Shown: piece by piece, positions 1 through 46,028 of the stretch
Numbering within the stretch: the first letter of the stretch is position 1
Layout: each line of letters begins with the position of its first letter
Source: a virus
Taxonomy: Duplodnaviria; Heunggongvirae; Uroviricota; Caudoviricetes
Length of the DNA stretch: 47,449 nucleotides
Reading direction: 5' to 3' (one strand)
Virus record (IMG/VR): IMGVR_UViG_2585427767_000006
Notes under the pieces: model-generated
Database searches by the model: none
What the model saw: the letters and a program-made list of their open reading frames with translations, nothing else
Told to the model about the DNA's origin: nothing
Translations under genes and position numbers: made by a program

Positions 1-235
1 TCAATAAATCCCATCATTGCGATCAACCTCATCCTTAACCATTGATGCGAGCAGTTCTTCCAGTTTCTGCGCTGACAGCTTTACCTGGTGATCTTCAGCA
101 TCTTCCCGGGCTATTGTGGTTCGCGCAGTGGCTGATTTTGCTGACATCACCACAGGGGGCAGACGGACCATTGAACCATGGCCTCCGGAACAAATAAGGG
201 CAAAAATAACAACCACTATCGAAAGCTCACAAACT

Positions 236-405
236 AACCGCAGCACGTTCCTGCATACGACGTGTCTGCGGCATAATCCCAATGATTACTCCCTGACAGG
301 ATTTGCAGGCCACTCAATATCAGGTGCAGTTGATGTATCAACACGATTCAACAATACCCGATATTTATTCCATGCCTCCAGCAACGATCTTTCTTCCTCC
401 GTTGC
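236..405. repeat. Direct repeat copy 1 (~170 bp), derived from the 3' end of tfa
   Basis: Sequence from AACCGCAGCACGTTC through TTCTTCCTCCGTTGC recurs at 1286..1454 with roughly 85-90% identity judged by eye (offset ~1050 bp). Confidence 0.7.
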
Positions 406-555
406 GATTTCCAGATCTACAGCATCCTGCAGTGGCGCAATATACTCACTGAATTCCTGGATGTAGAACTGTGTGGTGACGGTCTTCCAGCCATTCGGCT
501 CCTGCTGTATCGAAGCATACCAGGCTATTTCAATATCGCTATGCTGCGGCAGCAT
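286..555 (-). pseudogene. tfa: Tail fibre assembly protein Tfa, C-terminal fragment only
   Basis: C-terminal ~55 aa ([54 protein letters not shown]) closely match the C-terminus of lambda Tfa; the N-terminal half of a ~194-aa Tfa is absent. Confidence 0.6.
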
Positions 556-611
556 TTAACCCCTTGTAATTCATCGCCATAATTGATTTAATTCACAAAT
601 AAAACTATAAC

Positions 612-1280
612 ATGGTGAAATTAATGAAAAAAAACACAGATGATGGGGCTAAAATTTACACACCACTTACCCTAAAGCTTTATGACTGGTGGGTTTTGGG
701 AGTATCAAATCGGCTTGCATGGGGATGTCCTACAAAGGAACACCTTCTTCCACACTTTCTGGAACATTTAGGTAACAACCATCTGGATATTGGTGTTGGA
801 ACTGGGTTTTACCTTACTCACGTACCTGAGAGTAGTCTGATATCTTTAATGGATTTGAACGAAGCTAGCCTGAACGCGGCATCTACAAGGGCTGGGGAAT
901 CAAAAATTAAACATAAAATTAGCCATGATGTTTTTGAACCTTATCCCGCGGCGTTACATGGTCAATTTGATTCCATTTCCATGTTTTACCTTCTTCACTG
1001 CCTGCCTGGAAATATATCTACAAAAAGCTGTGTAATACGCAATGCGGCGCAGGCCTTAACTGACGATGGAACTCTATACGGAGCCACAATTCTTGGCGAT
1101 GGAGTTGTGCACAATAGCTTCGGTCAAAAACTGATGCGCATTTACAATCAGAAAGGCATCTTTTCAAACACAAAAGATTCCGAAGAAGGCTTAACACATA
1201 TACTCTCAGAGCATTTCGAGAATGTTAAAACCAAGGTTCAAGGTACTGTAGTAATGTTTTCCGCTTCAGGGAAAAAATAG
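612..1280 (+). CDS. Class I SAM-dependent methyltransferase (cargo gene; substrate unknown)
   Basis: 222-aa ORF with Rossmann motif I LDIGVGTG followed by an acidic post-I residue (LMDLNEASL); no DPPY/NPPY DNA-MTase motif; AT-rich upstream region; opposite strand to the tail genes. Confidence 0.7.
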   Translation: MVKLMKKNTDDGAKIYTPLTLKLYDWWVLGVSNRLAWGCPTKEHLLPHFLEHLGNNHLDIGVGTGFYLTHVPESSLISLMDLNEASLNAASTRAGESKIKHKISHDVFEPYPAALHGQFDSISMFYLLHCLPGNISTKSCVIRNAAQALTDDGTLYGATILGDGVVHNSFGQKLMRIYNQKGIFSNTKDSEEGLTHILSEHFENVKTKVQGTVVMFSASGKK

Positions 1281-1285
1281 CATCC

Positions 1286-1454
1286 AACCGCAGCACGTTC
1301 TTGCTTAAGACGTGCTGCGGCATAATCCCAATGATTACTCCCTGACAGGGTTCGTAGGCCACTCAATATCAGGTGCAGTTGATGTATCAACACGGTTCAG
1401 CAGCATCCGATACTTTTTCCAGGCTTCCAGCAACGGGGTTTCTTCCTCCGTTGC
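1286..1454. repeat. Direct repeat copy 2, containing a second tfa 3' remnant (approx 1335..1470, minus strand, no start codon)
   Basis: Minus-strand translation gives ...[36 protein letters not shown], a Tfa C-terminus; the 5' part of the repeat forms an 11-bp dyad CCGCAGCACGT-N11-ACGTGCTGCGG. Confidence 0.65.
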
Positions 1455-1473
1455 ATATACAGCTCACCTTTTT

Positions 1474-1767
1474 TCACCCACGATTAACCAACAGCCAGAC
1501 CAGCAGACACGCCACCACCGGCACAGCAAAATCCATCAGGCTTGCCACATCCCATGCACGTGTATCAAAACCGCCCCACCACGGCATATTCATTCGCTTG
1601 CCATGCCCGAACATTTCAATCCAGCGATATTCTGCCTGGGTATGTTCACGCGCAATGAAGAACGTACAACCGGCTATCGCTCCGTAAGCCCAGTTTCCGG
1701 TAAAAAGACCAACCAGTATCTGCGCAGCCACAGCACAAAGTGCATGAAGTAAGGGGCTTATATCCAT
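1474..1767 (-). CDS. Small integral membrane protein (97 aa), last gene of the stf-coupled cassette
   Basis: Two or three hydrophobic segments (AVAAQILVGLFTGNWAYGAIAG; FAVPVVACLLVWLLV); strong SD AAAGGAGGAA 5 nt upstream of the ATG, 12 nt after the stop of the preceding gene. Confidence 0.5.
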   Translation of the reverse strand: MDISPLLHALCAVAAQILVGLFTGNWAYGAIAGCTFFIAREHTQAEYRWIEMFGHGKRMNMPWWGGFDTRAWDVASLMDFAVPVVACLLVWLLVNRG

Positions 1768-1779
1768 TATTTCCTCCTT

Positions 1780-2058
1780 TCAGCTCCATTCCCGAAGCGG
1801 TGTTTCCAGCTCCACGACATAATCAGAGAATACAGAAACATCAAACAAGTCATCAAGAATGCGAATGTTGACAAAATAACCGTCATTCCGGACACAGACA
1901 GGTTCTCCCTCTTCTGTTACCCCTGTTTCTGTGTAGGTGAAACCAATTTCATCGACTAACAGTTTATTCTGGAGGTCTTCATCCTCCTCCCAGTCAAGAG
2001 ATGACAGGAAGGATTTAAACTCTCTGTTACCAGGAAATTTCAAAGTTAAATCTTTCAT
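1780..2058 (-). CDS. Small acidic protein (92 aa), translationally coupled to stf; putative tail-fibre accessory/chaperone
   Basis: ATG overlaps the stf stop (ATGA) and is preceded by SD AAGGAGG inside the stf 3' end; acidic composition (DWEEDEDLQ). Confidence 0.5.
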   Translation of the reverse strand: MKDLTLKFPGNREFKSFLSSLDWEEDEDLQNKLLVDEIGFTYTETGVTEEGEPVCVRNDGYFVNIRILDDLFDVSVFSDYVVELETPLREWS

Positions 2059-4079
2059 ACTGCCTCCTTGATTTGCCTGTCATTTAATTCTTTAAACCAG
2101 ACTCTGAAATTTCTGATGTGTCCAAACAAATGACGCGTTCCTGCTGCGGTCTGCCCACCAAACCGGTACGATGTTGCTGTAATTCCAAATATTTTACCAT
2201 TAAGGTTTGTTGTATAATTACCATTGCATATTGCATTTACTGATAAATCAGATTTAGCTCTCACACCCACAATGAACCTTTCTCCATCTGAGGCAATTTG
2301 TGGCTGAACCATTCCTACGTTGGCGCTTATCTTTCCTGTTGAAACAAACCCCAGCGATAAATAATTATCATCAATACTGTGCCCTCCAACATCAAATATC
2401 CTTGGCGCAACATTGGGCGGTGTACTCCAGCTCCTGCTTACTTCGCACAATACCGTAAAAGGCCTTGTTGACAGGTTATTCTGCGATGGGATAGTAACTA
2501 CATCACTTGCGCGTGTTGTTGGCATTGTAGTTACAATAAATGACGATGCCGTATTGCCCAGTTCAATTTGCGGCGTCGTCATGGTTAATGTTGAGTCATC
2601 ATAGAATGGCTCATTACTTATTTTGTTTGACATATAAAAAGCACAGTTAACGGTATCAATATCCGTATTAGCTGTATAAGTGGACTCATAGTAAGTCCAC
2701 TCACCCTGTTGTTCAGCTTTGGCCGTTATAAGGGATGTATTACCGCTTACTGTTGCAATCCGGGTATCCAGATCAAGATAAGAGTCAGCAGAGAAGGTAT
2801 CTGTTCCACCAATAATAACTGAAACTCTTAACCTGCATCGTGCTTTAGCGCCTTTAACCCGGCACGAAAAAGTGAAACATTCACCACTTGCCAGCGGGAA
2901 TCTGTCTGCTGCAACCACACCATGCACAGTATAGCCACCTGTTGTTCCCACTATACTTTCCGTGGGTGTCACCGTGGCATAATTGAACCCCCGTTTATCA
3001 GTGCCAAATGTTTTATTCAGTGCGGAATGAACAGTCCATGAGTCTGGTTTATTTGAGTTCCTCAGATAATTTGTCCTCTGTCCTTCAATCAATAAGCCAT
3101 CGCGCTCAAATCGCGGTTCATCAACTTCAGCAAGCTTGAGTTGGCCGGACTTATTAATATACGTTGCTGTTGAAGCACGTTTAAACTTAACAATCTTGTC
3201 GCCTGGCATTGTTATTTCATCGTCACCTATAACAATCTTTTTATATGATGGCGAAAAACCCGTAATCATATCCAGTGAATCGTTAAACGGTATCCACACA
3301 TCAGGCAGCGGCGGCACTATATTCACATAGGGCTCTGCAGTCACTTCCGCTGCGGCTTCTGCGCGGTCTGCCGCCTTTTCAGCTCGTGTCGCTGCCGACA
3401 GAGCCTCATCCTTTTTCTGCCCGGCCGTTGTTGCGTCTGCTGCGGCCTCCCGCGCTTTTGTGGTGGCGATTCCGGCATTCTCAGCGGCTGACTCTGCATT
3501 ACGGCGGGAAGCCTCTTCACTGCCTGCGGAGGCTTCCTCTGACGCACGGGCATTTGTCTCTGAACGTTCTGCCGCTGTTGCTGCATTTTGTGCGGCTGTT
3601 TTTGAAGAAGCTGCCGCTTTCGCGCTGTTACCTGCATTCGTCTCTGATGTTTTCGCCGCGTTCCTGGACGATGCCGCTGCTGTTTCTGATTTCTTTGCTG
3701 CCGCTGCGCTCTGAGAGGCGGCTTCAGCGTTGCGTGCCACCTCTTCCACCATCTTTTCAAAACGATACAGTGCCTCCGGACGAACATCATCTTCTGTTGC
3801 AGCGCCCAGAAAATCATTCAATGTCCCCGGCTTAGAATCCTCATACACGGTGATGGCCCCGGCATGTGAAGGCGGAAAACCTTCAACCAGCAGGATAACG
3901 CTGTACTGGCCATACTCGACATCCATGCTGTAACGTCCGGCTTCATCCGGATTTTCTGAGGCCACCGTGTTCACCACAACCGTGGTGCTGTTACGTTTTG
4001 CTTTGAGCTGAATGGTGCAGTTCTGTATTGGTTTTCCCGCACCATCTTTCAGCACACCTGAGATTTTTACTGCTGCCAT
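2055..4079 (-). CDS. stf: Side tail fibre protein Stf
   Basis: N-terminus MAAVKISGVLKDGAGKPIQNCTIQLKAKRNSTTVVVNTV... matches lambda Stf; Ala/Ser/Glu-rich repeat region follows; C-terminal part is divergent. ORF-track start 4085 is GTG; ATG at 4079 aligns with lambda. Confidence 0.85.
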   Translation of the reverse strand: MAAVKISGVLKDGAGKPIQNCTIQLKAKRNSTTVVVNTVASENPDEAGRYSMDVEYGQYSVILLVEGFPPSHAGAITVYEDSKPGTLNDFLGAATEDDVRPEALYRFEKMVEEVARNAEAASQSAAAAKKSETAAASSRNAAKTSETNAGNSAKAAASSKTAAQNAATAAERSETNARASEEASAGSEEASRRNAESAAENAGIATTKAREAAADATTAGQKKDEALSAATRAEKAADRAEAAAEVTAEPYVNIVPPLPDVWIPFNDSLDMITGFSPSYKKIVIGDDEITMPGDKIVKFKRASTATYINKSGQLKLAEVDEPRFERDGLLIEGQRTNYLRNSNKPDSWTVHSALNKTFGTDKRGFNYATVTPTESIVGTTGGYTVHGVVAADRFPLASGECFTFSCRVKGAKARCRLRVSVIIGGTDTFSADSYLDLDTRIATVSGNTSLITAKAEQQGEWTYYESTYTANTDIDTVNCAFYMSNKISNEPFYDDSTLTMTTPQIELGNTASSFIVTTMPTTRASDVVTIPSQNNLSTRPFTVLCEVSRSWSTPPNVAPRIFDVGGHSIDDNYLSLGFVSTGKISANVGMVQPQIASDGERFIVGVRAKSDLSVNAICNGNYTTNLNGKIFGITATSYRFGGQTAAGTRHLFGHIRNFRVWFKELNDRQIKEAV

Positions 4080-4810: not shown

Positions 4811-7800
4811 TCAGCTAATCGTGATGCCTGCAGTGGCTTTCTTCATCACAACAACCAGCAAATCGCTGATACTTGCTGTGGGATACCAGCCATTTACCAG
4901 CCATGCTGACACCGAAAACTCCAGTGTCATGTGACCGTGACCGGCAGGCATATCAATAACGCCACTGTAAATCAGCGTATTATCCAGCGCGGTACGGTTA
5001 TAAATTTCAGCACCGTTTTTCCGCACTATCAGACGGCATGAGGAGTAAATATCAGTATGCTCTCTCTCATGCTTAGCGCCACTGAATGCCACCGCCGGAA
5101 TAACAATTTGCCGGTCAAACGGCTGATCGTCATAAACCCTGACGGTAATGGTCCCTGATGGCCACCGCTCCGGTGCTCGGGAGTCCCGGGGGAAAGCTTT
5201 ACCCACTGTTTTAACGAGATCGCCTTCAATCTGGTTCGCGGACAGTTTTCCCAGAACCCGGCAGTTCTCGTTAATCGTGACGTTGTTGAGCGTCCCGGAG
5301 TTCGCATTCACGTTACCGCTGATATCGGCATTTTTCGCCGTCAGCCGCCCGTCCGGTGTCAGGGAAAATGCCGGAGGATTACCGCCGCTGGTAATGGTGG
5401 GAGCCGTCAGATATTTCAGGAACACTTCGTTCATGAATATCTGATCGCCCTGACCAACAAACATCGGCTTTGTGTTGCCATTCGCAGGATTAACCATCGC
5501 AATCCTGTCCGCCGCCAGCAGCACCTGACTCTGCATGCCGTCAGGGGTGTTCTCAATACCGGCACCAATACCCGCGATATAAAGGCGTCCGTCCTGCATC
5601 TGCTGCAGCTTCACAGCCCACATGCTGTTCAGGTTATTATTTGTATCAACCTGAACTTTCTGTATCTGCTGGATTGCCGCACTCTGATTTTCCAGTTTTT
5701 TATTGACGGTCTGCGTGATTTCATTGCTGACATTCGTAATGGACGTCCTGATTTCAGCCAGGTCCGGCGCAAGCTGACCGTTATCAATCTGCGTCCACAG
5801 CTCCTGAGCCAGATGGCTTTTCCCTATCTCGCCTTTGAAAAAATCCAGATAGCCGGATGCATCATCACTCGGCTGGCCAACAGCCTCCACAAATGCCGAT
5901 TTGCCAACGGTGTTCACACTGCGGATGTAAAAATAATAATCATGGCCCGGTTTGATATTGATACTGGCAGCTATCCAGTACAGCGCCGTGCCAAGATAAC
6001 GCGCGCTGGTTTCAACCTGCCTGATATCCGCAATCCGATTTTCCGAGAACCAGAACTCAAACTGTACCGTCGGATCATAAACCGCAAGATGCGGCGTGGC
6101 GGTTATCTGAAAATAGCCCGGCGTCAGCTCAATCCGCGATGGCGCTGCCGGTGCGGCAATCCGGAACGATACCGACGCCGGATCGCCCTGCTGCCCCCAC
6201 GCATTTACCGCCCGGACTGTCAGACTGTAATTTCCCAGAGCCAGCTGCCTGAAGCGGTATGTGGTTTCCGTCGTCCGGGCCGTGCTGACCAGCCGCTCAC
6301 TGCCGTCATCCGCTGCCACGGTCAGGCGAAGCATAAAGCTCACGCCCTTCACCACCTTCGGCGTATCCCAGCGCGCCAGCACCTGGTATTCCCCGCTGTC
6401 TGCGGTGACTTCGGCGGTCAGGTGCTGCACCGCTGGCGGCGTGACACCATTCACCGTGCCGCTCTGGTCGCCGTCAAAGTGCGCCCCGTTATCCACGATG
6501 GCTTCTTTTTCCGGTACATGCTGCACGGCAGTGATGGCATACGTGCCGTCATCGTTCTCACGGATACTCACACAGCGGAACAGGCGCTGGCGCAGCGTCG
6601 GCAGCTTCAGCCCCCACACGCTGTATTCGGCAACGCCGTCAGGAACCCGACTCACTTTCACCTTCACGCCGTCGGTGACGGACTGAACCTCCACGCTGAC
6701 CGGACTCCCCTGCCCGTCAACCAGGCTTATCAGCGTGGTACCGGAGGATGGCAGCGTGATTTCACGGTCGAGCGTCAGCGTCCGGGTCTGGCTGTTCACC
6801 GCCAGCACGCGCCCGCCAATGCTGATCCCCGCATAGTCATCATCGCAGATTTCAATAACATCACCCGGTACATGGCGAAGCCCTTCTGCGCCGACGCTGA
6901 AATCCACGGTCTGCGTTTCCAGCAGTTCTGTTTTAATCAGCCACAGCCCGGCGCGGTGTGCCTGCCCCCGGCTGGTACAGCCAAAGGCATCCATCTTCGT
7001 GACGTTACGACCGTAACGGGCAATGGCCTGCGTGTCCTCCACAAGCTCTGTCGCCGTCTCCCAGCCGTTATCCGGGTCAATCCAGTTCACCTCAACGGCA
7101 TTATGACGGTCCTTCAGGGCGCTGAAGCTGTAGCGGAACGGCGCGCCATCATCCGGCATCACCACATTACTGCGGTTATAGGTCCACACCTTATCCGATG
7201 GCCGGTCCTGCACGAACGTCAGCGTCTGCCCGTTCCATACCGGCATACAGCGCATCGCCGAGCAGAAATCACTGAGCACATCCCACGCCTTGCGCTGCGT
7301 GGTCAGCCAGGCATTACAGGTGATGCGCGGCTCCGTGCCACCAAAGCCATCCGGCACCGACTGGTCGCAATTCTGGCCGATGACATACAGCGCCCATTTG
7401 TCCACATCCGCCGCACCGAGACGCTTCCCCATGCCGTAGCGCGGATGGGTCAGCATATCCCACAGACACCAGGCCATGTTGTTGCTGTATGCCGGTTTAA
7501 ACGTCCCGTCCCAGATACCGCTGTATTGCCGCGTCTGCGGGTTATAGTTCGACGGCACCTGCAGAATACGCCCGCGCAGATGATAATTACGGCTCACCTG
7601 CTGGCTGCCGAACTGCTCCGAGTCCACCTGCACGCCGACCAGTGCCGTGTTCGGGTAGCACTGTTTCACATCGATGATTTCGGTGTATGACGACCAGAGC
7701 GTTTTGTTCTGCAGCTGGTCTGTGGTGCTGTCCGGCGTCATCCTGCGCATCCGGATATTAAACGGGCGCGGCGGCAGGTTATCCACCACCACTGAGGCCA

Positions 7801-27712: not shown

Positions 27713-29566
27713 TTATGATGATGCCGGTGCATTTATCTCCAGCACCAGACTTTCTATCTCAACGCCATACGCTGCATTTTTGGTAATATCCGTCAGCGTC
27801 AGCGCATTCAGCCCCAGTGTCAGACTGTCTTTTATGACCTGGAATGCCGGGCCAGCCACTCCATTCAGTTTCGGAGTAACCGTGGCACTGCCGGCGGTGA
27901 ACACCAGCTCCAGCGTCTGCCAGTCGTTACTGTAATTCCCGAACTCGCCCAACTTTGTGTTTCCGGCTTTCTTGTGATGCATCAGATTCAGTTTGCCGTC
28001 TGTGGTCTGGGTGAAGAACGACATCAGGAACGGGTTACCAGTCCCGGTCATCGCCACGACGTCAGGTAACGCTACATCGGTATACAGATAAATTCCCAGA
28101 CCGAACTGGTTGTTGGTCAGTGCGCCTGACAGTCGAAACTTACAGCTCAGTCTGCCACCCCGTGTCAGCAGGGAGACTGCGTCATCCACCGGGCGCGTCA
28201 GGGACCAGGCTTTATTGCTCTGCTTGGTGATCTTAAATACACCATCTGACAACTGAATTCCGCCATTCTTAATGCTCCAGCCCTGCGCAGCAGCATCTCC
28301 GGCTGTCGGCAACAGGGAGATTGTGCGTACGGATGCATCTTCAGACGGCCCCGATGGCGTGTCGCCGCCGGGCGAGGGTTTGATTTCCGGTGCCTTACCA
28401 CTAATGAAGGCTAAGGTGCGACCGGCTACGTTCAGAATAGCAGTTGCCATACGATCGGGAATAATGCCACGACGCGCCCATGAGCTGAAATGCGTCGGGC
28501 GATTTGATGATACCCAGTTTTTGTTCGTTCGGGATGCCGAACCGTAATAACCAGACCCGGCAATATCAGGATCTTCTGACGGGTTGTTTGTCGGTGTATT
28601 AACTCCGCTACCATCGGTCATAAAGGGAACAAAATAAATCTGCTGGGATTCTTTACCTTTATATGCACCATATACCACTTCATATTGCGTACCGTGTTCT
28701 TGTTTCCACGCGTATGTCGTGTCGCCACAAATCCAGGGGACTGATGCCGGACTTCCACCGTGACACTGCGCTGCCAGCCCGGCAAGGTCAGCACGGAACT
28801 GCTGTACCATTGCAAGAAATGCTGCTGGCTGCTGGGCGTAACTGGCATTCGTCATATCGAATTCCCCCTGCATCCAGCATATCGCCAGCAAAACGTTTTT
28901 CGGGTTTTTCTGCAATGCTGCCTTCGTGCGGAAAAGCAGATCCTGATATAACGGCTTACCCACTCCCCAGCGAGCCGAATCCTGACTGGCTCCCGTGGAC
29001 TCGCTGAATGTCCCCTCCGTGCCCTGGGTGAATGCCGAACCACCACGACAGCATGGTACCAGCAGGATCCCCGCATTATTAGGGATATACGGAAGCAGTT
29101 TTTTGGCAATATGTAAGCCCTGTCCGACACAGCCGTACTGCCCTTTGCTCAGGTCAGCCCGGGGATGGTTAATCGTACTCATATCCTGAACATCATGCAG
29201 ACAATGGTCAGCAGGAATGATGTCGTTAAATACGCATACTTCACCACCGGGAGTCACTGTGTTACGACGGGCCAGTTGCTTAATGCGCGGATGGGGCGCA
29301 TCGTATGAATCCGGAAGCGGAAGCCCTTCACCGTAAGCCATGGCATTGGATTGCCCGGCCAGTACGATGACGTAGTACCACTCCGGCTCAGTTGCACCAC
29401 TGACGACCACATCACCTTCTGCTGCAATCGCCTGCATCAGGGTATAAGGGGTTATGGCCACCGGACTACCAAACGGCTGCCAGCCCTCTTTCAGTTTATG
29501 TGTCAGCTTTTCCGCAAGATCTGACGGCGACGCCGCCCTGACAACATCATAGTGTTTAAATGCCAT
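27713..29566 (-). CDS. nanS: Prophage 9-O-acetyl-sialate esterase NanS-p (DUF1737 N-domain plus SASA esterase domain)
   Basis: N-terminus MAFKHYDVVRAASPSDLAEKL and the position directly upstream of the holin match the nanS-p gene of Stx-type phages; start at ATG 29566 (SD GGTGGAAAG) rather than ORF-track 29581. Confidence 0.8.
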   Translation of the reverse strand: MAFKHYDVVRAASPSDLAEKLTHKLKEGWQPFGSPVAITPYTLMQAIAAEGDVVVSGATEPEWYYVIVLAGQSNAMAYGEGLPLPDSYDAPHPRIKQLARRNTVTPGGEVCVFNDIIPADHCLHDVQDMSTINHPRADLSKGQYGCVGQGLHIAKKLLPYIPNNAGILLVPCCRGGSAFTQGTEGTFSESTGASQDSARWGVGKPLYQDLLFRTKAALQKNPKNVLLAICWMQGEFDMTNASYAQQPAAFLAMVQQFRADLAGLAAQCHGGSPASVPWICGDTTYAWKQEHGTQYEVVYGAYKGKESQQIYFVPFMTDGSGVNTPTNNPSEDPDIAGSGYYGSASRTNKNWVSSNRPTHFSSWARRGIIPDRMATAILNVAGRTLAFISGKAPEIKPSPGGDTPSGPSEDASVRTISLLPTAGDAAAQGWSIKNGGIQLSDGVFKITKQSNKAWSLTRPVDDAVSLLTRGGRLSCKFRLSGALTNNQFGLGIYLYTDVALPDVVAMTGTGNPFLMSFFTQTTDGKLNLMHHKKAGNTKLGEFGNYSNDWQTLELVFTAGSATVTPKLNGVAGPAFQVIKDSLTLGLNALTLTDITKNAAYGVEIESLVLEINAPASS

Positions 29567-29826
29567 GGTTCTTTCCACCATCTGAAAAATGATTCTTTAA
29601 AATACCTGACATGTAATACAGAAAAAACACAAAACCATACCTTAAATAAAAACCTCATCATCAAGCAGATATGCATGGATAAACTACAAGACGAGATATA
29701 AACCACCCTGCATTTAAATAAACAATAAACAACATCAGAAAAATAATTCTGCTCTATGGTTTACAATCAAAAATATCATTTATACTTTTCAGAACATCAC
29801 CAGCAAGGCATAAACAAGGAAACTAA

Positions 29827-34116: not shown

Positions 34117-35214
34117 TTATGGTATTAATCCAGCTGTTCTTGCTTTATTAATATAATTTTTACAGTGGTTAGCCAAATACTCTGCAAACTTGCATGGAAG
34201 TGCATTTCCTATTATGACGCATACTTTATCCATCAAAGCTGTATCAAACACATAGTTATCAGGAAAAGTCTGTAGTCTAGCAGCTTCTCGAACAGAAATA
34301 GTACGCGTATCCTCAGGATGTCCATATCGCCCACGGCTTAAAGTTGTGCACCCACCTGTAATCGTTGGCGATACGTCATCCCAAAGCATACGACCATAAA
34401 CATTACTAAATCCTTTATAGTCGCCTTTATGGCAATCTGGACGGAGTTCTTCGGGAATACACTCCCAAGACATCCCTGGAACAGCCGCTTGTAACCGCTT
34501 TATATTGATCTCAGACAAATCCCTAACAATATGCCAACTCGACAATGGAAACTTCCCTTGCTTCTTAGCCTGTGAAAGAGTTAAGGGTTTTGGCATATCT
34601 CCAATAGCTTCTTTAACAGTTACCCATTTGGGTTTCTCTCTTCCATCCTTAGAGTGTGATCCATCAGGCAATGGGATGGCAAATCCTTTTCCTGCCAACA
34701 GAACAAGCCTTTTTCTGAACTGTGGTACACCAAAGTCAGCTACTTGCAAAACTCCATAATTAACTATGTAACCAAGTTTTTTCAATCTCTCAATTACTGG
34801 CGAAAGAAGATGATTTCCCCGGGAAGCTAATCCAGGAACATTTTCCATCATGATTGCTGATGGATTGGTTTCTTCAACCAACCGTAACATCTCGTTAATC
34901 AATAAATTACGAGGGTCCTCCCTTTTATACTTGGCAGTGAGACTAGTAAATCCTTGACATGGCGGGCACGCAGATAAAAGATCTAAATGTTGCTCAGGGA
35001 TAAGATTTAGGATATCACTCCCCTTTACAAACCGAATATCTTGAACAAAGAGTTTTGTCTCACGATGATTTGCTTGGAAAGTAGCGGCGGCATGTGCGTC
35101 CAGTTCAACGGCAGCTTTGACATCAAACCCGGCCATTTTTAGTCCCATGGTTAGTCCCCCACCACCGCTAAATAGGTCAACTGCATTCAAACTGGTCACT
35201 GTTTTCTCACTCAT
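34117..35214 (-). CDS. DNA cytosine-5 methyltransferase (Dcm-type)
   Basis: Motif I DLFSGGGG, catalytic motif IV PCQGF, motif VI ENV, motif VIII QFRKR; ATG overlaps the upstream gene's stop by 8 nt. Confidence 0.9.
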   Translation of the reverse strand: MSEKTVTSLNAVDLFSGGGGLTMGLKMAGFDVKAAVELDAHAAATFQANHRETKLFVQDIRFVKGSDILNLIPEQHLDLLSACPPCQGFTSLTAKYKREDPRNLLINEMLRLVEETNPSAIMMENVPGLASRGNHLLSPVIERLKKLGYIVNYGVLQVADFGVPQFRKRLVLLAGKGFAIPLPDGSHSKDGREKPKWVTVKEAIGDMPKPLTLSQAKKQGKFPLSSWHIVRDLSEINIKRLQAAVPGMSWECIPEELRPDCHKGDYKGFSNVYGRMLWDDVSPTITGGCTTLSRGRYGHPEDTRTISVREAARLQTFPDNYVFDTALMDKVCVIIGNALPCKFAEYLANHCKNYINKARTAGLIP

Positions 35215-37318
35215 TATTTCCCAACTTCAACTGTTCTGCCTCATCCAAGAATTCTTGGTGAGTTTGAGTTGTCCTCAGCAAGAACCCTGCCCAATCAACG
35301 GGTGTTAGGCGTTTTTCTTCGATGTATGCAGTATAAGCTTTACGACGTGCCCCACTCAAGCGCTCCCCATCACTTACCAGCGTAACGTGAAAATCAGATG
35401 CTATTGATTTAAAATCATTATGTCTCTCATCGTTCAAAAACTCCTCGAATGTTTCGAAGTAATTAATAATACGATCCATTTCATCATTGGAAATATAATG
35501 ATGTGGCTTTTTTATTTCAATTATTTGTAATTTTCCATCCTGACTAAACAATACAAAGTCTGGTCTTTTATTTTTTTTATCAAAATCTATAAGAAATATC
35601 TCCTCACCAGTTTTCTTTTTATAAAATTTTTGAAATTCCCTTTTAAGCGTGGACAACGTTTTATTTGCTGTAACTGGGACCCATTGAGGGTTAACTAGCC
35701 ACGGAGCGGATGCAATTAGATCTTGTAACTCATCTTCTGCTGTATCCTTTGCGTCTTTTAAAGACTCGAGACGCTCAATAATCTGAAGACGCTTTTTGAC
35801 CTTTTGACCAAAACTAACGGTTTCAGCTAGTTGAGCCGTTGCTAAAATATCGTTGAGAACATTGAGCGGTGTATCCGCTTTACTGGAAGCTTCTATTAAC
35901 TTCTCATCTAAGGATTGTAATGGTGCTAACATAATACTTAACTGCACTAAATTCTCGAGTGCATCAGGATCATGTAATTCATCACCTCGTAAAGATTTAC
36001 CCAACAACTTGGCTATTTTTTTAGCCTGTGCTCGCATATCCTTTTGACCGGCTCCAGGGTATGCTTGCTCGACCTTATCCTCCACTTGCGCTAATTCGAA
36101 GAATTGATTCATCATATTATTTCTAAGGGGGTCGCGAGTTATTTTACCCACAAGTAAAATAACTTCTTGCCCCCAATTCTGAAATTGCGTTCCTAAATCA
36201 TCAGACCATAGAATATCCCTTCTATCAGTTTGGATAAGATCTTCTTTTTCGTCTAACCAGTCAGCATGCAACTCACCTACCAAATATGAACGTATAGAGT
36301 GCTCTCCAGTAAAACCAGCTTTTCTATTAAAAACTGCTGTTTGCGCAGCAAACTTACCTCGGCAATAAATTCTAACACCTGCCATTAACTCGTCCTTATA
36401 AGGCTCTTTCGCGTATGCAATCCAACCTAATATCGGGTAAGCTTTCCCTTCATGTTCAAAACCGGCCTTAACAATTGATGAACGCGTGCCGTCAGGATTA
36501 AAAGCCGTATAATCACTTAAATCCGTACAAGAATCTGTCGCAATACTTCCACTCATGGAACGAAATTCAATTTTAGAGTTAGGCATAACAGGAACAGTAA
36601 ACTCTCCGACCTCAACTTCATAGTCAGGATTAGACTTTGTTTTCGAAGTATCAATCAGTTTAATATTCCAGTTTTTACTCTTCACTCCAAAACGTTGTGA
36701 AAGCTGCCGAGATAAATCTTTTATTTCGCTAATTTTTCTATATTCAAAATCACTTAATATTATTTTAGTATAGGTCCTGTCACTTAGTGTGCCGTCTAAA
36801 TCCCCAGTTTCCGGTTTATAAGACACTGCAGTATCATCCATTATTTTTTCTTTATCTAGCTGAATATGAGCAACCTCATACCCTTCCTTTCCATCACGAC
36901 TGATTTTTTCCCCACCGGCACTTATAATCTCGACCCTTTTACAAACACCAAAAGGTGCTAATTTCCCAACGCCTTTCCGTCCCATGACTTTGCGGTGAAA
37001 CACCTTCGAGGTTTCACCTCTTTTTGGATCCTTACGTCTTTCTTTGCCAACAACCAAATAAAAGTTCTGTAGTTCATCAGGCGCCATTCCGACGCCATTA
37101 TCTTCTACTTCTATTGTGACATTTTTTGACCTGACAACACCATCCTGTCTAACAGCCAAGTATTGGCCCATAGGTGCTTTTATAGTGACATTAGTCGCAT
37201 CTGCATCGTAACTGTTAGATACTAATTCGGCTATAACAGCATAAGCCCTGTCATATAATTTCACACCTAATTTATCTACTGTCATCCTTGATATCTGCAT
37301 TTCATATTGACGCGCCAT
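35207..37318 (-). CDS. GHKL (MORC/MutL-like) ATPase fused to a C-terminal PD-(D/E)xK-type nuclease domain; putative restriction/defence nuclease
   Basis: N-box ELVSNSYDADA, G1 DNGVGM, G2 GRKGVGKLAPFG in the first 130 aa; C-terminal IDFD...PDFVLF...IIEIKK nuclease-like signature; SD AAGGA upstream. Confidence 0.7.
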   Translation of the reverse strand: MARQYEMQISRMTVDKLGVKLYDRAYAVIAELVSNSYDADATNVTIKAPMGQYLAVRQDGVVRSKNVTIEVEDNGVGMAPDELQNFYLVVGKERRKDPKRGETSKVFHRKVMGRKGVGKLAPFGVCKRVEIISAGGEKISRDGKEGYEVAHIQLDKEKIMDDTAVSYKPETGDLDGTLSDRTYTKIILSDFEYRKISEIKDLSRQLSQRFGVKSKNWNIKLIDTSKTKSNPDYEVEVGEFTVPVMPNSKIEFRSMSGSIATDSCTDLSDYTAFNPDGTRSSIVKAGFEHEGKAYPILGWIAYAKEPYKDELMAGVRIYCRGKFAAQTAVFNRKAGFTGEHSIRSYLVGELHADWLDEKEDLIQTDRRDILWSDDLGTQFQNWGQEVILLVGKITRDPLRNNMMNQFFELAQVEDKVEQAYPGAGQKDMRAQAKKIAKLLGKSLRGDELHDPDALENLVQLSIMLAPLQSLDEKLIEASSKADTPLNVLNDILATAQLAETVSFGQKVKKRLQIIERLESLKDAKDTAEDELQDLIASAPWLVNPQWVPVTANKTLSTLKREFQKFYKKKTGEEIFLIDFDKKNKRPDFVLFSQDGKLQIIEIKKPHHYISNDEMDRIINYFETFEEFLNDERHNDFKSIASDFHVTLVSDGERLSGARRKAYTAYIEEKRLTPVDWAGFLLRTTQTHQEFLDEAEQLKLGNNE

Positions 37319-43553: not shown

Positions 43554-46028
43554 ATGAGTAAAGTCTTTATTTGCGCTGCTATTCCTGATGAACAGGCCAT
43601 AAAAGAAGATAGCGCTGTTGCGGTGGCCACTGCCATTGAAGCTGGTGATGAGCGTCGCGCACGCGCAAAATTTCATTGGCAATTTCTGGAGCAATTCCCT
43701 GCAGCTCAGGACTGCGCTTATAAATTTATTGTCTGTGAGGATAAACCCGGCATACCCCGCCCTGCCCTCGATTCCTGGGATGCTGAATATATGCAGGAAA
43801 ACCGCTGGGATGAGGAGTCTGCTTCCTTTGTCCCGGTTGAGACTGAATCAGATCCGATGAACGTCACTTTTGACAAGCTGGTCCCTGAAGTACAGAACGC
43901 TGTCATGGTTAAGTTCGACACATGTGAAAACATCACCGTTGATATGGTTATTAGCGCACAGGAATTGTTGCAGGAAGACATGGCAACATTCGACGGACAT
44001 ATCGTTGAAGCGTTGATGAAAATGCCAGAAGTTAACGCCATGTATCCGGAGCTTAAGCTGCATGCCATCGGGTGGGTTAAGCATAAATGTAAGCCTGGTG
44101 CCAAATGGCCCGAAATTCAGGCAGAGATGCGCATCTGGAAAAAACGTCGCGAAGGTGAACGCAAGGAAACCGGAAAATACACGTCTGTTGTTGATCTCGC
44201 CCGCGCCAGAGTCAATCAACAGAACACTGAAAACTCAGCAGGAAAAATCAACCCAGTCACTGCCGCCATTTGTCGCGAATACAAGCAGACATGGAAAACG
44301 CTGGATGAAGAACTGGCCTACGCTCTCTGGCCTGGCGATATTGATACCGGAAACATTGACGGCAGCATCCATCGCTGGGCAAAAAATGAAGTTATCGACA
44401 AAGATCGCGAAGACTGGAAGCGCATTTCCGCATCAATGCGCAAACAACCCGATGCCGTTCGCTACGACCGTCAGACTATTTTTGGCCTTGTCCGTGAGCG
44501 TCCGATCGACATTCACAAAGATCCCGTAGCACTGAACAAATACATCACTGAATACCTGACTACCAAGGGCGTGTTTGAAGATGACGAAGGAACAAATCAG
44601 GGCACAGCTGGTACTCTCCCGTCACCAGTACCAGAAACTGATGCAGTGGAAACGGCAATGCCGGACAACGAAAAAACCGAATGCGAAGTGGAAGACGAAC
44701 CATCTGTAGAGCGTGAGGGACCGTTCTACTTCCTTTTCACCGATAAGGACGGCGAAAAATACGGTCGCGCAAACAAACTTTCTGGTCTGGAAAAAGCACT
44801 GGCCCTGGGAGCTACGGAAATCACAAAAGAGGAATACTTCGCACGTAAAAACGGTACATACTCAGGTTCACAACAAAATACTGGTGCATCTGACACGACC
44901 GCACAACCAGAGCCAGTAAAAGTTACCGCTGACGAAGTAAACAAAATTATGCAGGCAGCCAATATCAGCCAGCCTGACGCCGATGAACTGCTTGCAGTAT
45001 CACGTGGTGAATTTGTTGAAGGGATTAGCGACCCGAATGATCCGAAATGGGTTAAGGGGAACCAGACCCGCGATTCTGTGAACCAGAACCAGCAAGAAAC
45101 GGAACAGAACGACCAGAAAGCGGAACAAAACAGCCCAAATGCGTTACAAAACGAGCCAGAAACGAAACAGCCTGAATCAGTGGCGCAACAGGAAGTGGAA
45201 AAAGTCTGCACCGCCTGCGGTCAGACCGGCGGCGGCAACTGCCCTGATTGTGGCGCGGTAATGGGCGACGCAACATACCAGGAAACATTCGATGAAGAGT
45301 ATCAGCCTGAAGTTCAGGAAGATGATCCGGAGGAAATGGAAGGCGCTGAACATCCACACAAGGAGAACACTGGCGGCAATCAGCATCACGATAGCGATAA
45401 TGAAACTGGCGAGACGGCAGATCACTCAATTAAGGTGAACGGTCATCAAGAAATCACATCCACCAGCAGAATGTGGCACCACATGATGATCGACCTTGAA
45501 ACCATGGGAAAAAATCCCGATGCCCCGCTTATCTCAATAGGTGCAATATTTTTCGATCCGCAAACCGGAGATATGGGGCCGGAATTTAGTAAGACCATCG
45601 ATATGGATACTGCTGGCGGAGTCATTGATCGTGGCACCATTAAATGGTGGCTTAAGCAATCACGGGAGGCGCAATCTGCCATTCTGACCGATGAAATCCC
45701 GTTAGATGATGCACTGCTGCAATTGCGGGAATTTATCGACGAAAACTCCGGCGAATTTTTTGTTCAGGTCTGGGGAAATGGAGCCAACTTCGACAACACG
45801 ATTTTGCGCCGTTCATACGAACGGCAGGGGATCCCCTGCCCGTGGCGTTACTACAACGATCGCGATGTACGCACAATCGTTGAGCTGGGAAAAGCCATGG
45901 ACTTCGATGCTAGGGCGGCTATTCCATTCGAAGGTGAGCGCCACAATGCGCTGGATGATGCCCGTTACCAGGCAAAATACGTTTCAACTATCTGGCAAAA
46001 ACTGATCCCGAATCAGGCTGATTTTTAA
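43554..46028 (+). CDS. Large exonuclease-like protein with zinc ribbon and C-terminal DEDDh 3'-5' exonuclease domain (annotated in related prophages as exodeoxyribonuclease VIII-like)
   Basis: 824 aa; CTACGQTGGGNCPDCG zinc ribbon; C-terminal MMIDLETMG (Exo I), WGNGANFD (Exo II), HNALDDARYQ (Exo III) motifs; SD GAGGT. Confidence 0.7.
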   Translation: MSKVFICAAIPDEQAIKEDSAVAVATAIEAGDERRARAKFHWQFLEQFPAAQDCAYKFIVCEDKPGIPRPALDSWDAEYMQENRWDEESASFVPVETESDPMNVTFDKLVPEVQNAVMVKFDTCENITVDMVISAQELLQEDMATFDGHIVEALMKMPEVNAMYPELKLHAIGWVKHKCKPGAKWPEIQAEMRIWKKRREGERKETGKYTSVVDLARARVNQQNTENSAGKINPVTAAICREYKQTWKTLDEELAYALWPGDIDTGNIDGSIHRWAKNEVIDKDREDWKRISASMRKQPDAVRYDRQTIFGLVRERPIDIHKDPVALNKYITEYLTTKGVFEDDEGTNQGTAGTLPSPVPETDAVETAMPDNEKTECEVEDEPSVEREGPFYFLFTDKDGEKYGRANKLSGLEKALALGATEITKEEYFARKNGTYSGSQQNTGASDTTAQPEPVKVTADEVNKIMQAANISQPDADELLAVSRGEFVEGISDPNDPKWVKGNQTRDSVNQNQQETEQNDQKAEQNSPNALQNEPETKQPESVAQQEVEKVCTACGQTGGGNCPDCGAVMGDATYQETFDEEYQPEVQEDDPEEMEGAEHPHKENTGGNQHHDSDNETGETADHSIKVNGHQEITSTSRMWHHMMIDLETMGKNPDAPLISIGAIFFDPQTGDMGPEFSKTIDMDTAGGVIDRGTIKWWLKQSREAQSAILTDEIPLDDALLQLREFIDENSGEFFVQVWGNGANFDNTILRRSYERQGIPCPWRYYNDRDVRTIVELGKAMDFDARAAIPFEGERHNALDDARYQAKYVSTIWQKLIPNQADF

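Follow-up and report, generated by a model that had tools for sequence, protein, structure and literature searches.

How does a methyltransferase gene come to lie between two copies of the end of a tail-fibre assembly gene, and do these copies have a part in its arrival or its loss? The question arises near the first letters of a Caudoviricetes record of 47,449 nucleotides (IMG/VR IMGVR_UViG_2585427767_000006, hereafter the window), where a sequence-only reading had proposed a cargo gene captured by recombination between tail-fibre assembly (tfa) genes, with flanking direct repeats that could mediate its deletion. The features on which our answer is built are collected in Table 1.

Table 1. 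Features of the methyltransferase (MTase) locus, in coordinates of the window
Feature	Position	Strand	Details and basis
DUF4376-domain pseudogene, 3′ part, internal stop	1..189	-	RefSeq annotation of a 100%-identical locus, strain elppa4
Left direct-repeat copy	236..405	-	tfa stop 286-288, 39 tfa codons 289-405, 50 nt of 3′ flank; alignment and Caudo_TAP match
Hairpin 3′ of the left tfa′ remnant	238..271	-	terminator-like, tail GTTAGTTTGT; terminator scan; RNA fold -29.3 kcal/mol, z -3.4
tfa′ pseudogene, equivalent of K-12 tfaX	286..555	-	89-aa ORF, Tfa-like at residues 31-86 only; phrog_2341
Match to Rfam RF02111 'IS009'	329..532	-	full model, 112.5 bits against a gathering score of 117; tfa′ remnant as candidate sRNA
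Promoter-like site ATGGCG-15-TTAAAT, pointing into the tfa′ remnant	554..580	-	K-12 counterpart ATGGCA-15-TTAAAT
Putative MTase promoter TTGATT-17-TATAAC	583..611	+	identical to the ybcY constitutive RpoD promoter; sequence match
Predicted class I SAM-dependent methyltransferase, ybcY type	624..1280	+	218 aa; longest ORF from 612
Right direct-repeat copy	1286..1454	-	non-coding tfa stub, stop 1335-1337, 39 codons 1338-1454, and 3′ flank
GC-rich hairpin, 11-14 bp	1288..1320	.	common to convergent MTase and tfa transcripts; RNA fold
97-aa predicted protein, right flank	1474..1767	-	phrog_1443; fixed unit with the 39-codon tfa stub

The two repeats run in the same direction and are identical at 151 of 170 positions in a global alignment (88.8%; BLAST E-value 1e-58), in agreement with the diverged copies previously judged by eye. 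A 1-nt indel splits them into blocks of 140 nt (266-405 and 1315-1454, 89%) and 29 nt (236-264 and 1286-1314, 90%) in a repeat search, their likeness ends abruptly at both sides, and they have in common identical stretches of 35 nt (266-300) and 39 nt. The best of 200,000 random 140-nt pairs drawn from the window matched at 60 of 140 positions, against 125 of 140 for the repeats. Read on the minus strand, each copy holds 39 tfa codons and the stop, followed by about 50 nt with a strong hairpin; the tfa 3′ ends recognized by the sequence-only reading are therefore real, although its figure of about 45 codons is too high.

The right copy has an in-frame stop directly upstream and no start codon, and is a 39-codon stub belonging to the adjoining 97-aa module. 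Other prophage ends (L011, L012 and L013) have the same unit of 97-aa gene, stub and hairpin but lack the MTase. The right copy groups at 96% identity with the stubs of such MTase-less prophages, against 88-91% for the left copy, and the histories of the two must therefore differ. Homology to tfa on the right-hand side continues past 1454 in 1958 genomes, and two synthetic queries for tandem-duplication junctions were mostly covered by this longer right-hand tfa.

The arrangement is one already known, that of tfaD-ybcY-tfaX in the DLP12 prophage of E. coli K-12. In K-12 BW25113 the MTase gene is 99.5% identical over 653 nt and tail fiber assembly pseudogenes stand at both sides; by near-identity to K-12 ybcY and by its neighbours, the gene of the window is a ybcY orthologue. 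The three elements (tfaD′-ybcY′-tfaX′, beside appY-ompT-envY) share order and orientation with ours, positions 309-1454 align at 97.2%, and the promoter sequence is shared. The K-12 locus differs in having a longer right tfa (438 nt), a more diverged allele of the left copy (80-84% identical left of 405) and a setting in a remnant at argU, whereas the module of the window lies in a full prophage at ompW. Its MTase is, moreover, a frameshifted pseudogene, while the copy in the window is intact; the lesion is a 2-nt deletion that takes the G of the ATG at 624 and one A of an A-run. Disruption of the gene in related strains, on which the sequence-only reading had staked its interpretation, thus occurs in the K-12 lineage only, through this loss at the start codon.

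The canonical order is J-lom-stf-tfa(194 aa)-MTase-tfa′-hydrolase-ompT, as in phage PhiR26_1 and strain E2865, and also in phage 2G7b; the annotation of PhiR26_1 names the MTase gene 'putative uncharacterized protein YbcY'. Phages PhiR26_1, 2G7b and ev243 resemble the window in that MTase and tfa converge and a tfa′ remnant comes after the MTase, with 331-1454 aligned at 97.9-99.5%. In PhiR26_1, however, a complete, functional tfa of 194 aa serves as the right copy and the left remnant is cut at the equivalent of position 331, to be followed by an alpha/beta hydrolase and ompT. The left copy of the window, in contrast, is complete through its hairpin, after which come the DUF4376 pseudogene, which flanks the module on the left and adjoins a truncated ompW prophage junction just beyond the window, and the prophage end. 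The gene is bracketed by tfa 3′ ends, as had been claimed, but these are not equivalent, since the right one is a functional full-length tfa in the canonical layout.

The left copy forms part of an 89-aa ORF (286-555) that matches the C-terminal part only of Pfam Caudo_TAP (E 6e-25), with likeness to full tfa extending to position 462. That this remnant was retained for a function of its own, as the sRNA IS009 divergent from the MTase or as a Tfa-like chaperone of 88-89 aa, and that selection keeps the repeat for this reason, seems unlikely to us. The IS009 match covers the full model and the segment is clearly homologous to the family, but it narrowly misses the Rfam gathering threshold; the model is poor in base pairs, and the 3′ half, where its conservation is highest, is simply Tfa coding sequence, which matches the right copy too (62.8 bits at 1378-1476, minus strand). 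IS009 has also been treated as lying within genes (PMC5331693). The ORF is matched end to end by PHROG 2341, a family of 88-aa proteins, yet K-12, 2G7b, E2865 and elppa4 have it in a broken, split or truncated form, annotated as incomplete, split or with an internal stop. For the tfaX gene of K-12 a promoter has been listed (Shimada et al., 2014, PMC3946193) and the window has a near-identical site at 580-554, but the ATG of the ORF overlaps the -10 element of this sole candidate promoter, and evidence for expression of the remnant was not found in the IS009/tfaX literature. Finally, positions 406-611 are 99-100% conserved together with the MTase, which could reflect a function of the remnant, but hitch-hiking with a cassette that spread recently would explain it just as well. 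The Rfam 'IS009' and PGAP 'nucleocapsid protein' calls at the locus are by-products of tfa remnants.

On the opposite strand, between the repeats, the ORF 612-1280 is intact and exceeds four Pfam gathering scores (Methyltransf_12, 37.6 bits against 30; Methyltransf_23, 28.8 against 27; Methyltransf_25, 27.7 against 27; Methyltransf_11, 24.6 against 21.2), which upholds its earlier assignment to the class I methyltransferases. Its length had been given as 222 aa, but every homologue begins at M5 of the ORF, so that the true start is most likely the ATG at 624, for a protein of 218 aa. LDIGVGTG corresponds to motif I, residues D59, G61, G63, D81, H105 and D106 are invariant among 32 homologues, and a dN/dS of 0.09-0.20 indicates purifying selection. 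The predicted alternating beta/alpha fold superimposes on solved class I MTases, and the protein would bind SAM and transfer methyl groups.

The structural model is a single Rossmann domain of 218 aa, predicted to have the fold of a generic small-molecule MTase and not of a DNA MTase. Its nearest structural neighbours are small-molecule or lipid MTases, and from fold and context the enzyme most likely acts on a small molecule or lipid; the top Foldseek match (8ys9, 16% identity, TM 0.62) makes a PmtA-like lipid MTase a speculative idea. The expectation that the substrate could not be read from the sequence is borne out. Grouped at 50% identity, the ybcY-type family falls into about 1,700 clusters, almost all of solitary proteins of about 220 aa, and its distant homologues likewise stand alone, whether in chromosomes, on plasmids or in the company of insertion sequences; as the gene is solitary everywhere, its neighbourhood gave no indication of its role. 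Fusions among distant relatives, namely N-terminal extensions lacking domains and one eukaryote-like RCC1 fusion, offered no functional clue, the names in source records are generic ('UbiE'), and no functional study of ybcY was found in the literature.

A nucleic-acid methyltransferase, acting on DNA for anti-restriction or a superinfection block, or on rRNA or tRNA for drug resistance, is quite improbable. The protein has no match to a DNA-MTase Pfam family, the alignment shows no (D/N/S)PP(Y/F/W) or PCQ/ENV motif, a PADLOC search for a defence role gave no match, the single domain comes without a target-recognition domain, the top structural neighbours are those named above, and the homologues stand without a nuclease partner. 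The DNA methyltransferase reading was rejected, motif IV, target-recognition domain and family models all being absent. Elsewhere, the window already holds a genuine type II restriction-modification pair.

Morons, a concept of lambdoid phages reportedly put forward by Juhala, Hendrix and colleagues in 2000, offer a close description of the cassette. Judging from its sequence traits, the cassette behaves as one: it is an extra gene between modules that adjoin each other in related phages, its GC content departs from that of its surroundings, it has a promoter of its own and a hairpin at its side, and it shares the stretch beyond the tail fibres with cargo of the lom, bor and ompT type. GC lies at 0.375-0.445 across 501-1300, against 0.50-0.545 in 1-300 and 1401-1800, and the gene is absent from the otherwise collinear prophage ends L011, L012 and L013; the claim that it is cargo is well founded. 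The putative promoter TTGATT-17-TATAAC is listed as a constitutive RpoD promoter of ybcY and flagged for H-NS (PMC3946193). It is invariant in the E. coli, Citrobacter and Salmonella-plasmid copies, and its -10 element (606-611) would leave the MTase mRNA nearly leaderless; a second site at 556-583 resembles a promoter by consensus match only. The cassette differs from other lambdoid morons in that the hairpin, its candidate terminator, is common to the convergent tfa and not its own. This right hairpin lies 8 nt 3′ of the MTase stop codon and folds at -25.1 kcal/mol on the plus strand and -30.0 on the minus strand (z -5.1 and -4.4). Because a U-tract is absent on the plus strand, where the terminator scan made no call, its part as MTase terminator is uncertain.

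Exchange of tail-fibre genes through conserved tfa/stf segments is said to have been described by Haggard-Ljungquist and co-workers in 1992 and by Sandmeier in 1994. In line with such mosaicism, the tfa C-terminal block is 84-97% identical in nucleotides among otherwise different phages (85.8-86.3% to lambda), with breakpoints at its edges. Here, however, the block is present twice and in direct orientation, and so would be able to delete the cargo in between.

Of 5426 complete E. coli genomes, 3799 (70%) carry the MTase at an identity of at least 95%, and functional lambdoid phages have it too; 816 genomes show the left flank of the window joined to this module. Among loci with different flanks the core 331-1454 is 99.5% identical, and mosaic breakpoints, at 236, 309, 331, 529, 1320-1326 and 1454, cluster at the repeat ends; that at 1320-1326, where O157-type loci diverge, lies within or near the hairpin. 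The junctions of the cassette itself, at about 555 and at 1285/1286, are outside or at the edge of tfa homology, and with non-phage copies, as on a Salmonella plasmid and next to insertion sequences, it has promoter and coding sequence alone in common. The original capture was thus probably illegitimate, in disagreement with the proposed recombination between tfa genes, and tfa homology probably accounts for later spread and loss of the cassette rather than for its capture.

It could be argued instead that a single tfa took up a mobile MTase cassette and that the repeats arose from this insertion by target or insertion-coupled duplication, given that they stand immediately around a foreign low-GC gene and that the right one begins 5 nt past the MTase stop codon. 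We consider this very improbable. The copies are 11% apart, yet thousands of genomes have the cassette at 99-100% identity; the right copy is closer to MTase-less stubs than the left copy is; the left boundary varies among loci (236, 309, 331 or 529); a repeat of at least 170 bp is far beyond any transposase target duplication; and the right copy of the canonical layout is a complete, functional tfa, unlike the product of an insertion into tfa. Neither terminal inverted repeats nor a transposase is present, the only inverted-repeat pair returned by the repeat search being a weak chance match, and transposon or insertion-sequence cargo was rejected on these grounds together with the length (170 nt) and divergence of the repeats. 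A degenerate Gin/Cin/Pin-type tail-fibre switch that lost its invertase, suggested by the duplicated tfa segments beside a tail-fibre gene, as in the invertible tail-fibre segments Mu G, P1 C and e14 P, has next to no probability, being already refuted by the direct orientation of the repeats, with both tfa pieces on one strand, no alternative stf C-terminus, no recombinase annotated in 6 kb around the locus and the same direct layout in functional phages.

Records with both flanks, one repeat and no MTase number only 4, from 2 sheep strains, all at the same ompW site. Their single repeat is chimeric, its alleles being those of the left copy at 251-265 and of the right type from 301 on, which places the crossover in the identical block 266-300. 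In structure this allele corresponds to the predicted product of deletion by recombination, and it makes repeat-mediated loss, or the reverse gain, plausible, as the sequence-only reading had suggested. The event at this site may have been a loss; the MTase-less ompW allele could also be the ancestral one, although it is about 400-fold rarer.

Taken together, these results lead us to propose with good confidence a lambdoid accessory zone in which a ybcY-type moron stands between two independent tfa 3′ ends and is gained and lost through homology. The region would be the tail-fibre-distal accessory zone of a lambdoid prophage at ompW, and the MTase a moron complete in itself, its roughly 730 bp (555-1285) comprising a sigma-70 promoter and the coding sequence; it would run against the tail-fibre operon and use the post-tfa hairpin as its 3′ end. 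The repeats would not have been made by the cassette. The right one would be the rest of the tfa that closes the tail-fibre operon, shortened to 39 codons when an stf/92-aa/97-aa module replaced stf-tfa, and the left one a dead tfa remnant (tfaX/IS009) travelling with the cassette. As tfa 3′ ends and hairpins are conserved at 85-97% among lambdoid phages, they would serve as homology blocks at which general recombination, by RecA or phage Red, could exchange tail-fibre modules and bring in or drop the DNA in between; a crossover between the copies would remove 1050 bp, including the MTase. Expression of the gene would be from the prophage, with silencing by H-NS. We infer the direction of the events, the recombination pathway, the expression of the MTase and its enzymatic activity from the features described above.

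A relative of the gene is found outside phages, on plasmid pK2044 of Klebsiella pneumoniae (BAH65943.1; PMC5126061), as a protein of the same family with 64% amino acid identity over its full length. Like the gene of the window, this rmpA-adjacent MTase is solitary and lies in horizontally acquired, virulence-linked DNA, but its context is a plasmid, and tfa repeats are absent there. What is known of it is limited to its use as a marker linked to liver-abscess and hypermucoviscous strains (PMC5126061). A bolder proposal, which we regard as rather improbable, is that ybcY-type MTases form an H-NS-silenced fitness or virulence module shuttling among lambdoid prophages, virulence plasmids of Klebsiella (where it lies beside rmpA) and islands close to genes for type III effectors or toxins; the enzyme would methylate one specific small molecule or lipid that comes from the host, the diet or the envelope, and phages would gain and shed the gene through the homology of the two tfa 3′ ends.

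The layout is real but ordinary and known from the annotation of K-12; as a structural feature it is textbook lambdoid mosaicism with moron carriage, and of little importance. The locus does, however, provide a clean natural case in which a diverged 170-bp repeat apparently deleted or delivered cargo, through a crossover in a 35-nt identical block. The MTase itself is among the most prevalent cargo genes of E. coli prophages, present in 70% of complete genomes and under purifying selection, with an rmpA-adjacent homologue on plasmids of hypervirulent Klebsiella.

The tfa 3' ends on either side of the MTase form a diverged direct repeat, as the sequence-only reading had claimed. A 1-nt indel splits the repeat into two blocks in a search of the window (table), which together make up one 170-nt unit, identical at 151 of 170 positions in a global alignment and with abrupt limits of similarity at 235/236, 405/406, 1285/1286 and 1454/1455. 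This similarity is beyond chance, since 125 of 140 positions match where the best of 200,000 random 140-nt pairs from the window reached 60, and the BLAST E-value between the copies is 1e-58. On the minus strand, each copy holds the last 39 codons of a tail-fibre-assembly (tfa) gene with its stop codon, rather than the roughly 45 codons first estimated, and the ~50 nt after each stop carry a GC-rich hairpin (fold energies of -19 to -30 kcal/mol, z-scores of -2.8 to -5.1 by RNA folding). The coding parts differ at 15 nt, with seven codons synonymous and five amino-acid-changing, a pattern that fits two genes diverging while both were functional. The left copy ends an ORF whose match to Pfam Caudo_TAP is confined to the C-terminal 56 positions; the right copy has no start codon and an in-frame stop lies immediately upstream, so it is non-coding.

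Coordinates of the features discussed (nt of the window)
Feature	Coordinates	Strand	Remark
Repeat block, 29 nt	236-264 and 1286-1314		90% identity
Repeat block, 140 nt	266-405 and 1315-1454		89% identity
Hairpins after tfa stops	238-271 and 1288-1320		
Blocks identical in both copies	266-300 and 307-345		35 and 39 nt
Left boundary, window type	236		then DUF4376 pseudogene; 816 genomes
Left boundary, K-12	309		
Left boundary, canonical phages and O157	331		
Left boundary, strain R12	529		
ORF ending in left copy	286-555	-	89 aa
RF02111 match, left remnant	329-532	-	112.5 bits; gathering score 117
RF02111 match, right copy	1378-1476	-	
Weak promoter-like site ATGGCG-15-TTAAAT	580-554		directed into tfa' remnant
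Candidate MTase promoter TTGATT-17-TATAAC	583-611		
MTase ORF	612-1280	+	
MTase ATG and A8 run	624-636		
45-aa ORF	1225-1362	-	overlaps MTase 3' end and hairpin
CssrB match	1289-1351	-	32.6 bits; gathering score 76
97-aa (phrog_1443) and 92-aa (phrog_1361) ORFs	1474-2058	-	
Alanine-rich segment inside stf	3340-3830	-	GC 0.54-0.62; strong AT skew
622-aa protein	27713-29581	-	DUF1737, SASA (sialate O-acetylesterase-like), DUF6645
DNA methylase and GHKL-ATPase genes	34117-37318	-	
824-aa early-region protein	43554-46028	+	

Between the copies lies an intact class I SAM methyltransferase gene that passes four Pfam gathering thresholds. Its assignment and strand had been read correctly, but its length is almost certainly not 222 aa: residue 5 is the first residue of all 31 aligned homologues and of PHROG 2132, and the Citrobacter and Salmonella copies do not conserve the ATG upstream of 624, which argues that the true start is almost certainly ATG 624, giving a predicted protein of 218 aa. 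The dN/dS of 0.09-0.20 indicates purifying selection. In K-12, the gene is a pseudogene owing to a 2-nt deletion that removed the G of this ATG together with one A from the A8 run next to it; that run, exactly the spot of the deletion (about 5316 in the comparison locus L002), may be slippage-prone.

E. coli strain elppa4 contains an identical copy of the region (100%), there the terminal part of a lambdoid prophage (with J, lom, stf and others) inserted at ompW, beside yciE-trpA. In BW25113, two tfa pseudogenes with a frameshifted class I methyltransferase between them adjoin appY-ompT-envY, the place of tfaD, ybcY and tfaX in K-12 nomenclature. The arrangement in the window is that of the DLP12 prophage locus of K-12, which aligns with 309-1454 at 97%; the locus has long been annotated. 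Among 5426 complete E. coli genomes, the MTase CDS is present in 3799 (coverage at least 80%), always with at least 95% identity and with at least 99% in 3387 records, and the whole 1351-nt module is covered to at least 80% in 2736. The module is likewise carried by sequenced phages, PhiR26_1, 2G7b and ev243 among them.

In the canonical layout, seen in phage PhiR26_1 and strain E2865, lom and stf are followed by a full-length tfa (194 aa), the convergent MTase, a tfa' remnant, an alpha/beta hydrolase and ompT, and in 1958 genomes the right-hand tfa homology extends past the point where that of the window stops; the right "repeat" is thus normally the working tfa of the phage itself. In the window, by contrast, stf-tfa has given way to another fibre module, made up of a 676-aa stf and the 92-aa and 97-aa ORFs, and only the last 39 tfa codons are left. 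The 39-codon stub and its hairpin are a fixed appendage of the 97-aa gene, with MTase-less examples at prophage ends by ybhB and sitD, and phage 2G7b shares the right side of the window's module (homology over 331-1778 at 97.9%). The left copy travels with the MTase cassette and its left boundary differs among loci (table), while O157-type loci diverge on the right at 1320-1326, the hairpin end, with a yciG/F/E-catalase block preceding the full tfa. The breakpoints are thus concentrated at the ends of the tfa 3' block and of its hairpin, as would be expected if conserved tfa 3' segments are recombination sites between lambdoid genomes; the block is 85.8-86.3% identical even to lambda's own tfa. 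The two copies differ in origin.

After stf, the conserved 97-aa and 92-aa ORFs take the place of a Tfa-type chaperone, and neither has a match in Pfam or NCBIfam; RefSeq calls the 97-aa gene "frameshifted" in the identical strain, and the ORF is open in the window. The alanine-rich segment inside stf produces spurious long ORFs in other frames.

Capture of the MTase by recombination between tfa genes, as had been proposed, finds no support in the cassette's own junctions, which fall outside tfa homology or at its edge. Copies 88% identical, on a Salmonella plasmid and an insertion-sequence-rich contig, share only 555-1280, namely promoter region and CDS, and a Citrobacter copy (92%) retains 469-611. 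The more remote homologues, at 56-68% amino-acid identity, are lone genes outside phage contexts: in Salmonella, Enterobacter and Yersinia chromosomes, next to insertion sequences in Aeromonas, and on Klebsiella plasmids. The sharing of promoter and CDS alone with non-phage copies, together with these solitary homologues, argues that the MTase already existed as a free-standing mobile gene when a lambdoid phage acquired it. Solitary homologues lie near OspG-like kinases and cdtA in Escherichia albertii (L031), near PerC and an autotransporter in Salmonella (L029) and near a GDSL autotransporter in Yersinia (L006); two unrelated contexts (L006 and L023) share a CPBP (Rce1-like) gene or its remnant on the downstream side.

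The cassette has a GC content of 38-43% against about 50% in its flanks, a candidate promoter whose sequence is unchanged among the E. coli, Citrobacter and Salmonella plasmid copies, and a strong hairpin immediately 3' of the MTase stop, without a U-tract on the MTase strand. Shimada et al. (2014; PMC3946193) list this sequence for ybcY among constitutive RpoD promoters and flag H-NS in the spacer between ybcY and tfaX. Low GC and the promoter are marks of a moron, as the hairpin past the stop may be.

The repeats had also been suggested to mediate deletion of the MTase. A query built as the predicted deletion product (window 1-405 joined to 1455-1767) aligned without a break from flank to flank, through one repeat, in four records from two sheep isolates, ECL27977 and ECL27829. 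At the same ompW site, these strains have the same DUF4376 pseudogene, a single tfa stub of 120 nt and the 97-aa gene, and they lack the MTase. At the 19 copy-distinguishing positions, the single repeat carries left-copy alleles over 251-265 and right-type alleles from 301 on, which places the crossover inside the identical 35-nt block; within the right-type part, left-copy bases occur at 306, 354, 357 and 387, three of the four being found also in MTase-less prophage stubs. Such an allele is the exact product expected of homologous recombination between the copies, and an "empty" ancestor would look alike. Parsimony favours deletion as the probable direction of the event, given that the left flank occurs with the MTase in 816 genomes versus without it in only two strains.

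Several annotations overlap the locus. Rfam RF02111 ("IS009") spans the left remnant end to end just below its gathering score and matches the right copy through its unstructured 3' half, which is Tfa coding sequence only; IS009 has been treated as within genes (PMC5331693), and RF02111 in effect models the 3' region of tfa and the tfaX remnant. The promoter-like site means that the remnant may give rise to a non-coding transcript, and no observation requires one. The match to CssrB, a Shigella chromosomal sRNA, is weak and partial and covers hairpin and tfa stop. The 45-aa ORF, named "hypothetical protein" or "nucleocapsid protein" by PGAP/RefSeq in many genomes, is almost certainly spurious.

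Elsewhere in the window, a 365-aa C5-cytosine DNA methylase (Pfam DNA_methylase; PADLOC MTase_II) and, directly upstream, a 703-aa GHKL-ATPase protein with a PADLOC REase_II match look like a phage-borne type II restriction-modification pair. The 622-aa protein lies between the lysis and regulatory regions, and the 824-aa protein carries an Rv2179c-like 3'-5' exoribonuclease domain at its C terminus, whereas its N-terminal 640 aa match no domain.

Regarding the enzyme itself, the AlphaFold2 model is confident (pLDDT 90), none of the curated families searched claims the protein, and PHROG 2132, its family, is labelled "unknown function". No DNA-MTase motif or domain was found in Pfam or the homologue alignment, and PADLOC gave no match. 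As a family it is compact (out of 1.84 billion proteins, 1738 clusters at the 50% identity level, nearly all about 220 aa), with generic source names, uninformative domain fusions and the invariant motifs YxPxxLxxYDWWVLxxSN, LLHCLPG, GATILG and YNxKGIFSN in the homologue alignment. With modest confidence, we regard it as a putative methyltransferase of small molecules or lipids that the prophage would express.

A 64% identical homologue (6995-7648 of the Klebsiella pneumoniae plasmid NZ_CP082797, L033; also in L020) lies divergent beside rmpA, with rmpC, peg-344 and iroBCDN, and 603 records of Klebsiella plasmids carry homologues at about 67% nucleotide identity, frequently in two positions on one plasmid. 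Papers mention the Klebsiella homologue solely as a marker linked to liver-abscess or hypermucoviscous strains (PMC5126061, PMC9846069).

The sequence-only reading was thus largely right in spirit, with corrections on the origins of the copies, the capture route and prior annotation. The locus holds an ordinary moron, set at a mosaic joint of lambdoid type, whose gene family is very prevalent among prophages.
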